Below, in pieces: positions 9,804 through 48,858 of a DNA stretch of 64,000 nucleotides. The position numbers and the translations under genes are program-made. How positions within the stretch are numbered: position 1 is the stretch's first letter; each line of letters opens with the position of its first letter. A model generated the notes under the pieces. That model was not told where the DNA came from. It worked only from the letters and a program-made list of their open reading frames with translations, and did not search any database. The stretch is from assembly GCA_000165345.1 (NCBI GenBank), contig CM000433.1, positions 896,001 to 960,000 of the forward strand, in the 5' to 3' direction.

Positions 9804-10563
9804 GATTAACTCTTTTAATTGACTACATCGTATTATCTTCTAGTTATCTTCTTTATGCAAACAAGTATAGCTTATTTTAACTGTAATTGTCTTTTACATT
9901 ATTAATTGTTGTGTGTAATTTTTTAAATCCATAAGAAATCAATCTGGCGCCAATGTTTCATTGATTCATTCCAATTGAAATGAAGTACGGGGTTAAAAAA
10001 AAAAAGCTTATTCTAATTTAAAAAACTCTTTAAATTAAAATGAAAGAAATCTTTGGATTATTAATAGTAAGTTAAAAAAATAGAGTGCATATTTTTTGGC
10101 TACTCCATTTCCCTCTCTTTATTTCTTTACTAAGTAATAAATATCATTTTTAAGAGGGGAAATTGCATGCAAAGATAATTAATTAACTCTTAATGAAAAT
10201 TCTCATTTTGATCAAATATACGAAGATAATAGCATGTAAGCTGAGTACAGTATTTGCATTAGTTAAACAAATGCCACCTGAGACGCCATGGGACACTGTT
10301 TTTTCTATTATAAGAAGCCAATTTTTTGCTGTAAGTTGAGACCATTGTAAATACTGATTAAGAAACCCAGATTAATTACATGTAAAAATTTAACACAAAT
10401 CCATTAAACTAATTGACTCAAAGTGGGGGTTCACAATTTTTCAGTTCTTAATTTTTATATTTTTTGTTCAAATGCAAATATGTAAGTTAATTGATCTTTA
10501 TTATATATCATTTTAATACTTTAATATATTCTTACTTTTTATTTATAATTATAAAGTTAAGAA

Positions 10564-11679
10564 TCAATAATCCATAAAGTCTAAATATGATTCAGTAAAA
10601 TTTTCTTTGTTAGATTTAACAATTATTTCATTAGAAATAGTAAAGTTTAATCCTGTAACAATATTTACTTCATTATCATAAAAATATTTTAATTCTTTAA
10701 CTTGACCCAAAGGAACTCCTACTGTGAAGTTCGACTCCAAAAAATCCAAAGTAACTAAAGCTGGGGAATACATTAGATATGCAGGAATATGTTTGATATT
10801 TGGGTAAACAACTATAGGAGTACTGCTAAAATGCTTTACTAGAAATTCCAATGCGGGAGGAAAAGGAACTACATCGTCTTTCATTCCCCAGAAGAAGATT
10901 ATTTTAAAAGTATTTTCGTATTTGGATAATCTTTCAAAATCCAAATGTCTGTCAAATAAGTTGCCATCTCCGCCTGATTTAATATATGTTGAGAACATTT
11001 GGTGAAAAACGTTCGTAGTGGCTTTTTTTTCTTCTTTAGTTTGTTTTCCCAATTTAACATATCCCAATTTGGAGGCGCAATAAAATCCACATCTAAACAC
11101 TCTTTTAGAATTGTGAATGTTCTTAATGGCACTAACAAGAGAAGAATTTGATAATCTGTATAATTTTGGAAAATCATATTTTGTCATTATTCCAGGTGGG
11201 CACATTGGTATTAAGTTACTAATATGATCCGGGTGTTCTAATGCATAATTGATAATGATTAATCCTCCCATTGAAACACCTAATAATGAAATCTTCTCTA
11301 CAGCTTTATTATCACTATCAACCCACCCAACATGTTTAAGCAATTCATTTAATTGATCAACAAATCTTTTTTGTGAGAAAAAACCAGGAAGTTTCCATTC
11401 AGTGTTAGCATGTCCTAATAAATCATAGGTTAAAACTTGATAACCAGTATGAGAAAATATACACCTCCAATTATCAAATTGGGTTGAAGCTGCTAACAAA
11501 CCATGTACCATTACAATTCTTTTTTTTTGTTCTTCTTTAGTTATAGTATAAAAAGTTCTTCCGGATTTCAAATCTGCAAAATCAGATTTAATTACACAGG
11601 AGGAGCCTTGATAGAAGCAAAGTGTAATAAAACAGATTAATGTGATTACGTATTTCAAGTTCATTTTTGCCAAATTCAA
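10564..11679 (-). CDS. Secreted alpha/beta-hydrolase (lipase/esterase-like)
   Basis: 371-aa ORF with an N-terminal signal peptide. The HG oxyanion motif (VMVHGLL) and the nucleophile elbow G-x-S-x-G (LLGVSMGGLI) are both present. The spacing is typical of the alpha/beta-hydrolase fold. Confidence 0.8.
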   Translation of the reverse strand: MNLAKMNLKYVITLICFITLCFYQGSSCVIKSDFADLKSGRTFYTITKEEQKKRIVMVHGLLAASTQFDNWRCIFSHTGYQVLTYDLLGHANTEWKLPGFFSQKRFVDQLNELLKHVGWVDSDNKAVEKISLLGVSMGGLIIINYALEHPDHISNLIPMCPPGIMTKYDFPKLYRLSNSSLVSAIKNIHNSKRVFRCGFYCASKLGYVKLGKQTKEEKKATTNVFHQMFSTYIKSGGDGNLFDRHLDFERLSKYENTFKIIFFWGMKDDVVPFPPALEFLVKHFSSTPIVVYPNIKHIPAYLMYSPALVTLDFLESNFTVGVPLGQVKELKYFYDNEVNIVTGLNFTISNEIIVKSNKENFTESYLDFMDY

Positions 11680-47097: not shown

Positions 47098-47688
47098 CTA
47101 TATAAACTTTGATGAAAATGTCTGAATATAATTCATATTAAAATATAATGAATTTTTGATTAATGCTTTTATTAAATCAGTTAGGGTACAGATAAGACCA
47201 TAACTTAAGAAAGAATTAATATTGTTAGCCTTTTCTTTAGATTGAAAGAACGGAGAATATAACTTTTGATTAAAAGGAATGATTATACTGTGGTTATTAA
47301 CGTATGATTTAACAATATAGAAAGTCAGGAGTTGCCTAATTTTTGGAGGAAGGAAATTAATGATTTTTAGAATTAAGTAAATTCCACCCATTATTTTTTT
47401 GGTAAAATTAAAATTTTTATGATTAGTTTGGTTGATTTCTTTCGTTGAATTATTATTTAAAGTTTGTTTTAATATATTAAGTTGACGACTTTTTTTAACA
47501 TATTCAGTGAAAGTTGAGGGTTTATTAAGTTCTTTTAATTCTTCTTCTAACTGAGAAATTTCTGAATTAATTATTTGGTTTGTTTCACCATTGATTAATT
47601 TGTGAATTTTCAAAAGTTTTATTATATGTTCTAGAAAATATGACAAAAATAATTCAAATAGAATCAAAAATATTATTGTGTAATACAT
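47098..47688 (-). CDS. Three-transmembrane protein with a coiled coil between TM1 and TM2; tentatively Get1/WRB-like
   Basis: Topology is TM1 (YYTIIFLILFELFLSYFLEHII), coiled coil (EISQLEEELKELNK...LNILKQTL), TM2 (IMGGIYLILKIINFL) and TM3 (FLSYGLICTLTDLIKALI). This mirrors the WRB/Get1 layout. The assignment rests on architecture only. Confidence 0.4.
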   Translation of the reverse strand: MYYTIIFLILFELFLSYFLEHIIKLLKIHKLINGETNQIINSEISQLEEELKELNKPSTFTEYVKKSRQLNILKQTLNNNSTKEINQTNHKNFNFTKKIMGGIYLILKIINFLPPKIRQLLTFYIVKSYVNNHSIIIPFNQKLYSPFFQSKEKANNINSFLSYGLICTLTDLIKALIKNSLYFNMNYIQTFSSKFI

Positions 47689-48084: not shown

Positions 48085-48858
48085 ATGAAGTTATCACGTA
48101 GTTTTATTATTGCATGCATTTTTGTATACATTTTAAATATTTTGGGTTTGGTCATAATTAACCCAAAACCTGAAATTTGTTTGCTTAGAATTAGGGTTAG
48201 AGAAAAAGGATTTTTGAAAAGAGCAGCAAATGCAGCAGGAAGACTAATTTTTGGAGTTGATACAACTCAAAAAGAACCACCTTTAAATACCGAAAGATTT
48301 CCTGTTGGAATGTTTCCTGATCCAAAAGAATTAGCTCAAGAACTAGATATTCTTGAGAATAGAAAAATAGTACCAGATAGTAATCGTCAAACTGGCGTAC
48401 AATATATTTCAGATATAGCAAATGGTCAAACACCCAATTTGGAATTACTTTCAGATAGTCAAATGGCTCAAGTTAGTAGTGGTGTATTTGATAGAGGATC
48501 TAAAGAGGCCTTGGAGGCTTCTAATAAAACAAAAATAGAAGAATTAAGAGCCAATAAAGAAAGAGAACAGGCTCTGCAATCGCAAGGCCAAATAATTAAA
48601 GATGGTGAAAAGGTTAAAATTGGAAAACAAGGTCCAGTCACATTAGACGATCCTGATGAAAATAATAAAGGCAAAACAATTCCTCCAAAACTTGCATTAG
48701 TTGATAATGAAGAAGAATTTATTAATAAAGACACAAATCAATCCATATTTAGTCATCCTTTAGTGATTATTTTTATCTTCATACTTGTTGTATGCATGTT
48801 TGCAGGAGGAAGCCTTATTTTCTTTAAGAAATTTGGTAAAAAGAAAAGAAAAAAGTAG
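48085..48858 (+). CDS. Hypothetical type I membrane protein (signal peptide, C-terminal TM helix and KKKRKK tail)
   Basis: The N-terminus MKLSRSFIIACIFVYILNILGLVI is a signal peptide. The C-terminus PLVIIFIFILVVCMFAGGSLIFF is followed by KKFGKKKRKK. Confidence 0.55.
   Translation: MKLSRSFIIACIFVYILNILGLVIINPKPEICLLRIRVREKGFLKRAANAAGRLIFGVDTTQKEPPLNTERFPVGMFPDPKELAQELDILENRKIVPDSNRQTGVQYISDIANGQTPNLELLSDSQMAQVSSGVFDRGSKEALEASNKTKIEELRANKEREQALQSQGQIIKDGEKVKIGKQGPVTLDDPDENNKGKTIPPKLALVDNEEEFINKDTNQSIFSHPLVIIFIFILVVCMFAGGSLIFFKKFGKKKRKK

Follow-up and report, generated by a model that had tools for sequence, protein, structure and literature searches.

The convergent spacer between the genes for RanBP1 and a hydrolase on chromosome 5 of Cryptosporidium parvum very probably holds a four-exon, three-intron protein-coding micro-gene, at 10040..10570 on the plus strand, that makes a 67-aa membrane protein; we put the probability of this reading at about 0.85. 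Positions are those of the window, the 64,000-nt stretch of DNA that was analysed. The gene corresponds to CPATCC_0025470 and is not new: it is already in two public annotations, uncharacterised. Both neighbours, RanBP1 and the hydrolase, match C. parvum proteins exactly, and the spacer is 760 bp long, bounded by the RanBP1 stop (last base 9803) and the TGA of the hydrolase (10566..10564, minus strand), the size and limits that a first-pass annotation had given. That annotation expected such a spacer to be transcriptionally quiet; instead, it is filled by a gene. The same annotation also proposed, as one of three options, a spliced micro-protein gene with an upstream promoter here, in agreement with two curated annotations and with conservation across eight lineages, and its span of 10271..10570 is both the CDS span of cpbgf_5003960 and the 3' part of CPATCC_0025470, so the call was right in substance. 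The features of the locus are as follows.

9859..9879, plus strand: near-invariant 21-nt block AAACAAGTATAGCTTATTTTA, with core AGTATAGCT, lying 3' of the RanBP1 stop and 5' of the putative promoter
9945..9952, unstranded: palindromic E2F-type site TGGCGCCA, about 95 nt 5' of ATG 10040; putative promoter element
10040..10066, plus strand: exon 1, 27 nt, encoding MKEIFGLLI; CDS start of CPATCC_0025470
10067..10225, plus strand: intron 1, 159 nt, GTAAGT...AAG; 137-168 nt among species
about 10106..10165, plus strand: polypyrimidine/polypurine hairpin in intron 1; z-scores -2.0 to -3.4 in five lineages
10164..10171, plus strand: TGCATGCA, inside intron 1
10226..10330, plus strand: exon 2, 105 nt, codons 10-44; holds the internal ATG 10271
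10331..10423, plus strand: intron 2, 93 nt, GTAAGT...AAG; 89-189 nt among species
10424..10481, plus strand: exon 3, 58 nt, WGFTIFQFLIFIFFVQMQI plus 1 nt; core of the predicted C-terminal transmembrane helix
10482..10556, plus strand: intron 3, 75 nt, GTAAGT...AAG; 67-75 nt among species, with GTAAGT and AG conserved
10557..10570, plus strand: exon 4, 14 nt, completing F, then KNQ and TAA; end common to both public models

The decisive evidence for a gene is its conservation across species. Our sample comprised eight lineages (C. parvum, C. hominis, C. tyzzeri, C. meleagridis, chipmunk genotype I, C. canis and two from Logan runs), with the more divergent C. muris, C. andersoni, C. baileyi and C. 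bovis outside it. The ATG, exon lengths of 27, 105 and 58 nt, the GT donors, the AG acceptors and the open frame are retained in all eight. The ORF is complete in seven of them; in L017 it is open through exons 1-3, and the contig ends before exon 4. The frame that the first-pass annotation asked to see conserved in related species is indeed conserved, but as 67-68 codons rather than 36. Between C. parvum and C. hominis, every indel falls outside the exons. Exon 2 has no indel and no stop in any lineage and is 72-97% identical to C. parvum, compared with 46-97% for the introns; exon 3 is 72-100% identical, with WGFTIFQF invariant. Exon 4 and the stop codon of the hydrolase (10564..10566, minus strand) overlap tail to tail: the two CDSs share 7 nt in C. 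parvum, and 8-14 nt in four lineages that are more distant, and the C-terminus reads FKNQ, FKKN or FKQST in the seven lineages that reach it.

The pattern of substitution is that of a protein. Most differences are at the third codon position (7/5/21 and 15/10/28 over the three positions are examples), and by the Nei-Gojobori method dN/dS is 0.05-0.24 in 14 pairs from six lineages, the fifteenth pair having no computable dS. Read in either of the other frames, the full CDS contains 3-9 stops. The encoded protein is 61-99% identical across lineages, against only 57-98% for the adjoining hydrolase. Purifying selection has kept frame, exon lengths and splice sites, which supports a protein-coding gene rather than a non-coding RNA.

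The splice signals themselves are unusual, but alone they are not decisive. Nowhere else in the 64-kb window, on either strand, do at least three GTAAGT sites fall within 450 bp as those at 10067, 10331 and 10482 do; the window has 11 such sites on the plus strand and 13 on the minus strand. The Poisson probability of at least three in 760 bp of one strand is about 4e-4, and it becomes about 0.07 over all such stretches, so that the argument made earlier, that three sites here are unlikely by chance, does not decide the matter by itself. Two of the three donors then listed, 10331 and 10482, stand; the one placed at 10235 reads GTAAGC, starts at 10236 and lies within coding sequence, so that it is no donor. 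The spacer's remaining genuine GTAAGT, at 10067, was overlooked, and so were the first exon of 27 nt and the 5' portion of exon 2, giving three exons where the comparative data favour four. The ATG at 10271 and the TAA ending at 10570 are both there (the TAA at 10568..10570).

The locus has been modelled twice in C. parvum. CPATCC_0025470 (C. parvum IOWA-ATCC, GCA_015245375.1) is a hypothetical protein of 67 aa at 10040..10570 of the window, and the sole GT-AG model giving 67 aa over that span reproduces the database protein, P0013, exactly. Our model does not differ from it in locus, in any of the four exons or in protein sequence; the record has no function, and the analysis of conservation and selection across species is what the present work adds. 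The other model, cpbgf_5003960 (C. parvum BGF T2T, GCA_035232765.1), is a hypothetical protein of 43 aa with its CDS at 10271..10570. It shares the stop, intron 2 and intron 3 with the 67-aa model but begins at the internal ATG and so is without exon 1 and codons 10-24. Its CDS span is also that of the first-pass annotation, from which it differs in the acceptor (10424 rather than 10445), making it seven residues longer. Introns of the CpIOWA-ATCC annotation are stated, in general, to be 100% RNA-seq-supported (Baptista et al. 2022, PMC8744675), and the CpBGF T2T annotation was made with Iso-Seq and manual curation (PMC12179316). A literature search for the locus tags found no mention of the gene. 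A 67-aa gene is also annotated in a C. meleagridis T2T assembly, yet the gene is intact and unannotated in the examined assemblies of C. hominis, C. tyzzeri, C. canis and chipmunk genotype I, is also unannotated in one newer C. parvum and one C. meleagridis assembly, and is missing from the original IOWA II annotation and several others.

The start is disputed between the two public C. parvum models (67 or 43 aa). If the functional product were the 43-aa protein of cpbgf_5003960, made from ATG 10271, the transcript would start downstream of 10040, possibly in 'intron 1' near TGCATGCA at 10164, the untranslated part would comprise exon 1 and the beginning of exon 2, and the product would be a single-pass membrane peptide without a signal peptide. 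The CpBGF annotation, with its Iso-Seq and manual curation, has exactly that CDS; M25 is invariant across lineages; and constraint is much stronger from this codon on, with a pN/pS of 0.14 for codons 25-66 against 0.5-0.6 for codons 1-24. The faster change in codons 1-24 fits a signal peptide, and it equally fits weaker or no coding constraint. However, these codons are without a stop or an indel in any lineage, and here too the other two frames are stopped, except frame 3 of L017. L15 is retained through synonymous changes, as are, in all lineages, K23 and Q24 immediately 5' of the internal ATG, K14 is kept in seven of the eight lineages, and the translated N-termini stay hydrophobic with an A-x-A-like site in all lineages. 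Even though exon 1 is conserved only at a neutral level (52-63% identity to C. parvum in three more distant aligned lineages), all eight lineages keep both ATG-N24-GTRAGT and the AAG acceptor at 10225. TGCATGCA or TGCATGTA does lie about 60 nt 5' of exon 2 in four lineages, but conservation of TGCATGCA does not extend to C. canis or Lgn13. The start codon at 10040 has an A at -3 and an in-frame TAA 9 nt upstream, and a ribosome scanning the four-exon mRNA would reach it before ATG 10271. The comparative data favour the 67-aa CPATCC_0025470 model, and we consider it improbable that the 43-aa protein is the functional product, though the two forms could coexist.

We think it highly unlikely that the three-exon, 36-aa product of the first-pass annotation is made, either as the main form or through a minor in-frame alternative 3' splice site. 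Its pieces translate exactly as quoted, both of its acceptors are present in C. parvum (CAG ending at 10444, AAG ending at 10556), the 21-nt downstream shift preserves the frame, and the pyrimidine tract is better at TTTTTCAG than at ACTCAAAG. The acceptor CAG|10445 is also found in C. tyzzeri, C. meleagridis, C. hominis and L017, but chipmunk genotype I, C. canis and Lgn13 have CAA there, a synonymous codon for the invariant Q51, whereas AG|TGGGG at 10424 is conserved in all lineages and used by both public models, marking 10423/10424 as the true acceptor of intron 2. Choosing 10445 in its place dropped seven residues, WGFTIFQ, that are invariant at the protein level. We give almost no credence to the reading in which the ORF is incidental, whether in a spliced non-coding RNA or, for RanBP1, in a 3' UTR with introns or a read-through transcript. 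The ORF is indeed very short and AT-rich, CpBGF rules label novel models with a CDS below 200 bp as lncRNA (PMC12179316), polycistronic and read-through transcripts are reported for C. parvum, and the gene is absent from the annotations named above. Against this reading stand the low dN/dS and third-position bias, a protein identity slightly above that of the hydrolase, exon lengths that are kept exactly while intron lengths vary, one frame that is open in eight lineages with the others closed, and a conserved E2F-type site between RanBP1 and ATG 10040.

That site suggests that the four-exon gene probably has its own promoter. The palindrome reported at 9945 is where it was said to be, in promoter position, and reads GGCGCCAA or GGCGGCAA in every aligned lineage; each of the five TGGCGCCA copies in the 64-kb window is 5' of an ORF. 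In C. parvum, promoter peaks of open chromatin (ATAC-seq) have E2F as their dominant motif (bioRxiv 10.1101/2025.01.17.633476), and the putative element here resembles the Cryptosporidium E2F/DP-type promoter motif in its palindrome, spacing, conservation and position 5' of an ORF. The second motif proposed as an upstream signal, TGCATGCA, is present but starts at 10164 rather than 10165 and lies within intron 1. Further upstream, the 21-nt block AAACAAGTATAGCTTATTTTA is conserved in all lineages between flanks that are only about 50% identical, and its core occurs once in the window; it could be a 3'-end signal of RanBP1 or a promoter element. The hairpin in intron 1 has a weak consensus only (RNAalifold on a MAFFT alignment), and covariation is not established for it.

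The predicted 67-aa product, MKEIFGLLIIIACKLSTVFALVKQMPPETPWDTVFSIIRSQFFAWGFTIFQFLIFIFFVQMQIFKNQ, is hydrophobic, with two hydrophobic peaks in its hydropathy profile and between them an invariant loop segment, KQMPPETxWDT. AlphaFold2, run on the single sequence, predicts a helix at 2-24, a loop at 25-30 and a helix at 31-66 (mean pLDDT 85.5), and packs the first helix against the second, a hairpin alternative to a signal peptide. The single transmembrane segment first proposed gives way to these two helices in the favoured product. By eye, VFA|L, IFA|L, ALA|Y or AFA|Y follows residue 20 in all lineages, with A20 invariant, and a hydrophobic stretch at 41-64 precedes K(K)N. A transcript spliced at the three GTAAGT donors and translated from ATG 10040 would yield a protein whose residues 1-20 may be a signal peptide that is cleaved at an A-x-A-type site (VFA|L, ALA|Y, AFA|Y) or, alternatively, a first membrane helix. 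With such an N-terminus, the KQMPPETxWDT segment would face the lumenal or extracellular side, residues at about 41-64, with conserved polar positions T48, Q51 and Q60, would be the membrane anchor, and the short basic C-terminus (KKN or KNQ) would face the cytosol. Possible tryptic peptides are QMPPETPWDTVFSIIR, and also LSTVFALVK if the N-terminus is uncleaved; coverage by such peptides would be poor.

Given the size and conservation of the protein, we infer that it is most likely a small accessory subunit of a membrane complex of the secretory pathway. A bolder version, in which it is a genus-wide essential subunit of a conserved membrane machine (perhaps a highly diverged or replaced counterpart of a 'missing' tiny subunit of the V-ATPase, OST, translocon or GPI machinery) and the intron-1 hairpin and the AGTATAGCT block are locus-specific regulatory elements, strikes us as rather unlikely; if true, such a subunit would have escaped homology detection and most annotations, including all examined C. 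hominis assemblies.

The searches made found no relative outside the genus Cryptosporidium. Hmmscan against Pfam-A at E<=10, with the 67-aa and 36-aa proteins and all orthologues, matched neither Ost4 nor any other family, apart from one chance match at E=2, and a sequence-profile search of the PDB gave one chance match only (E=0.65). A word-indexed search of 5.8 billion proteins, with a single sequence and with a 6-sequence profile, returned only two C. parvum records. Full phmmer against 1.84 billion representatives returned the 43-aa record and two longer proteins (652 and 967 aa; E 5e-5 and 8e-4), whose weak scores we take as chance hydrophobic matches. JGI metagenomes had no match to either of two degenerate DNA patterns based on exons 2 and 3. 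For RNA, an Rfam scan of 9700..10700 at E<=10 yielded only chance matches below threshold, namely a Tetrahymena H/ACA model (24 bits, where the gathering score is 100) and a mir-320-like hairpin (20 bits), and the window has no tRNAs.

The value of the gene lies mainly in annotation, and nothing points to a new kind of system. It shows that a gene this small and this rich in introns can be recovered from a compact apicomplexan genome by reading sequence alone: it has three introns, though introns are rare in the genome of C. parvum. As a strongly conserved membrane microprotein that is, as far as seen, restricted to the genus, it is a reasonable candidate for tagging or knock-out.

Among known systems, OST4 was the comparison first suggested. 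The two are alike in being very small hydrophobic membrane proteins that annotation easily overlooks, but OST4 has about 36 aa, one transmembrane helix and no signal peptide, whereas the micro-gene product has 67 aa and two predicted hydrophobic helices (2-24 and 31-66). OST4 (PF10215) found no counterpart in the Pfam or PDB searches, and the profile scored 2-3 bits, the level of shuffled sequences, against yeast and human OST4. We compared the profile with 19 small membrane proteins in all, including Vma9, ATP6V0E1, ssSPTs, Kish, TMEM258, DPM2, PIG-Y, Vma21 and Sec61 gamma as well as OST4, TOM7, SERP1, PEN-2, FXYD2 and Pmp3. The named small subunits scored at most 3 bits, within the range of shuffles, and matched in neither Pfam nor the PDB; they are expected to be present in solved complexes. 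Resemblances seen by eye to ssSPT (EPWER..VFN), PEN-2 (W.TIFQ) and FXYD were dropped after scores at shuffle level. What the product does share with V-ATPase e/Vma9, ssSPT, Kish/TMEM167 and TMEM258/Ost5, and likewise with DPM2, PIG-Y, Vma21 and Sec61 gamma, is a size of 55-85 aa, an architecture of a hairpin or a signal peptide plus transmembrane helix, and a frequent absence from annotations, and it is like these small membrane subunits of the secretory pathway that it would most plausibly work.

The 760-bp interval between the convergent genes for RanBP1 (9147..9803, +; an exact match to C. parvum EAK87545.1 and QOY41798.1) and a secreted alpha/beta hydrolase (CDS 10567..11664, stop codon 10564..10566, -; an exact match to C. 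parvum EAK87544.1 and QOY41796.1) very probably holds a four-exon gene for a 67-residue protein (probability about 0.85). The contigs with both matches are chromosomes of ~1.09 Mb, and the accession skipped between QOY41796.1 and QOY41798.1 was the first hint of an annotated protein between the two genes. The IOWA-ATCC assembly GCA_015245375.1, reached via contigs encoding RanBP1, annotates a gene for a 67-residue protein at 10040..10570. Enumeration of all GT-AG combinations over this span yields 67 aa from one model alone, which uses GTAAGT at every donor and translates to exactly the sequence of the database entry “hypothetical protein CPATCC_0025470”:

10040-10066, + strand, exon 1
10226-10330, + strand, exon 2
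10424-10481, + strand, exon 3
10557-10570, + strand, exon 4

The first-pass annotation had proposed a three-exon micro-protein gene with its own promoter, encoding 36 aa; this interpretation is right, but the model needs four exons and 67 aa. Recomputation on the sequence confirmed the length of the interval, TGGCGCCA at 9945, the ATG at 10271, the TAA at 10568..10570 and the acceptors ending at 10444 and 10556, and the proposed pieces do translate to the 36-aa peptide. Two of the three reported GTAAGT donors exist (10331 and 10482); the third, placed at 10235, reads GTAAGC and lies at 10236, and a further GTAAGT at 10067 had been missed. GTAAGT occurs 11 times on the + strand of this AT-rich window (GC 22-31%) and 13 times on the - strand, and only in this interval do three copies fall within 450 bp; such a trio is indeed unlikely locally (Poisson P ~4e-4), but window-wide the probability is roughly 0.07. 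The copy at 7104 is likely a donor joining two ORFs (266 aa and 359 aa) in 6419..8524, which the run assemblies (Logan) annotate separately and which IOWA-ATCC and other recent annotations fuse into one 589-aa spliced product.

Syntenic intervals were fetched through the hydrolase and RanBP1 orthologues from seven further lineages: C. tyzzeri, C. meleagridis, chipmunk genotype I, C. canis, C. hominis, L013 and L017. The last two are sequencing-run assemblies (SRR31860986 and SRR31861040) with syntenic RanBP1, micro-gene and hydrolase; they differ from each other, their distance from C. parvum is similar to that of C. canis, and their proteins matched no named record at >=90% identity. The alignment has four conserved islands, which are the four exons.

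Nucleotide identity to C. parvum (Lgn13, lineage of L013)
Exon 2: chipmunk 88%, C. canis 72%, Lgn13 73%
Exon 3: chipmunk 84%, C. canis 83%, Lgn13 72%
Introns and upstream spacer: chipmunk 65-69%, C. canis 46-56%, Lgn13 49-53%

Exons 1-3 measure 27, 105 and 58 nt in all lineages, with introns of 137-168, 89-189 and 67-75 nt, and the ATG, GT donors and AG acceptors are always kept. A 67-68 codon frame is open throughout (the L017 contig ends before exon 4), and 3-9 stops interrupt the two alternative frames of the spliced CDS. Differences fall mostly at third codon positions (Nei-Gojobori dN/dS 0.05-0.24), all indels between C. parvum and C. hominis lie outside exons, and the C. hominis protein differs by A12S, T17N and S36T. 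Protein identity among lineages is 61-99%, and that of the neighbouring hydrolase is 57-98%. The open frame, dN/dS, exon lengths and protein identity thus all but rule out a chance ORF and a spliced RNA with no coding role.

The expected conservation of the reading frame was found for the longer product, but the 36-aa peptide is ruled out as the conserved form: its acceptor CAG|10445 is replaced by CAA in three lineages (chipmunk genotype I, C. canis and Lgn13), all lineages share AG|TGGGG at 10424, and the 21 nt between these acceptors encode the invariant WGFTIFQ that the peptide skips. The choice between 67 aa and a 43-aa form starting at the internal ATG 10271 is closer. That the shorter form is the product, or coexists with the longer, is the main alternative, and constraint is much stronger from codon 25 on (pN/pS 0.14 for codons 25-66, 0.48 for codons 10-24, 0.60 for codons 1-9). 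However, ATG-N24-GTRAGT is kept in all lineages though the rest of exon 1 diverges neutrally, acceptor AAG|10226 is universal, and codons 1-24 are free of stops and indels in every lineage, while both alternative frames there are interrupted by stops, with the sole exception of frame 3 of L017. L15, K23 and Q24 are retained via synonymous changes, the translated N-termini stay hydrophobic with a small-x-Ala motif ahead of residue 21, and the ATG at 10040 has A at -3 and an in-frame TAA 9 nt upstream. These features favour the 67-aa product.

AlphaFold2 (single sequence) predicts helices at 2-24 and 31-66 around a loop at 25-30 (MPPETP), with a mean pLDDT of 85.5, and the hydropathy profile has two hydrophobic stretches. 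The invariant residues are:

V22 K23 Q24 M25 P26 P27 E28 T29
W31 D32 T33; R39
W45 G46 F47 T48 I49 F50 Q51 F52 L53
Q60; I63 F64 K65

The N-terminus, fast-evolving yet always hydrophobic, resembles a cleavable signal peptide with a putative cleavage site after residue 20 (VFA|L, ALA|Y or AFA|Y); a signal anchor or a hairpin would fit equally well. In each of these topologies the conserved loop is predicted to face the lumen and the short basic tail the cytosol.

The last exon, with the same bounds as in the first-pass model, overlaps the hydrolase stop codon. The two CDSs overlap tail to tail by 7 nt in C. parvum (10564..10570), 8 nt in Lgn13 and 14 nt in C. meleagridis, chipmunk genotype I and C. 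canis (3603..3616, convergent, in orthologous contig L009), so each 3' UTR must extend antisense into the other gene.

The E2F-like palindrome is real and lies 95 nt 5' of the true start codon; every lineage retains it, as GGCGCCAA or GGCGGCAA. TGGCGCCA occurs four more times in the window (32736, 46388, 47877 and 48953), always intergenic and 5' of ORFs, once between the divergent ORFs 47098..47688 (-) and 48085..48858 (+), a placing consistent with putative E2F-type promoters; in an ATAC-seq study of C. parvum, E2F motifs dominated among promoter motifs (bioRxiv 10.1101/2025.01.17.633476). The second supposed upstream signal, TGCATGCA, is present but starts at 10164 rather than 10165, inside intron 1 at the 3' foot of a hairpin, and is only partially conserved. 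Two further non-coding elements are:

9859..9879 (core 9864..9872), 21-nt block AAACAAGTATAGCTTATTTTA, 56-76 nt past the RanBP1 stop
~10106..10165, intron-1 hairpin, arms CCATTTCCCTCTCTT (polypyrimidine) and AAGAGGGGAAATTG (polypurine) ~35 nt apart

The block is invariant or near-invariant in 8/8 Cryptosporidium lineages, in spacer ~50% identical in distant ones; its core AGTATAGCT occurs once in the window, and it may serve either RanBP1, as a 3'-end signal, or the micro-gene, as an upstream element. An equivalent hairpin with differing arm sequences is the MFE structure in 6/6 aligned lineages (z-scores -2.0 to -3.4 in the five computed). Its RNAalifold consensus on an automatic MAFFT alignment is weak, with covariation not established, and Rfam returned only a sub-threshold miRNA-like match.

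The first-pass observation was largely correct. The gene is not new, since two annotations of C. parvum and the T2T annotation of C. meleagridis (with a 67-aa gene at the orthologous position) already list it as a hypothetical protein, and it implies no unusual mechanism. A literature search for its locus tags found no mention among the papers covered. What our analysis adds is purifying selection across eight lineages, the argument for the longer (10040) start and the gene's absence from most other annotations. It is not called in the original IOWA II annotation, nor in the newer C. parvum assembly GCA_048859185.1, the older C. meleagridis assembly GCA_001593445.1 or the examined assemblies of C. 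hominis (L014/L016), C. tyzzeri (L008), chipmunk genotype I (L011) and C. canis (L012), although in all of these but IOWA II the ORF and splice sites were found intact. Baptista et al. 2022 report RNA-seq support for 100% of the introns annotated in IOWA-ATCC (PMC8744675), and the CpBGF annotation was manually curated, guided by Iso-Seq (PMC12179316). In that telomere-to-telomere assembly, “hypothetical protein cpbgf_5003960” (43 aa) covers 10271..10570, the exact span of the 36-aa peptide, from which it differs solely in its acceptor, 10424 instead of 10445.
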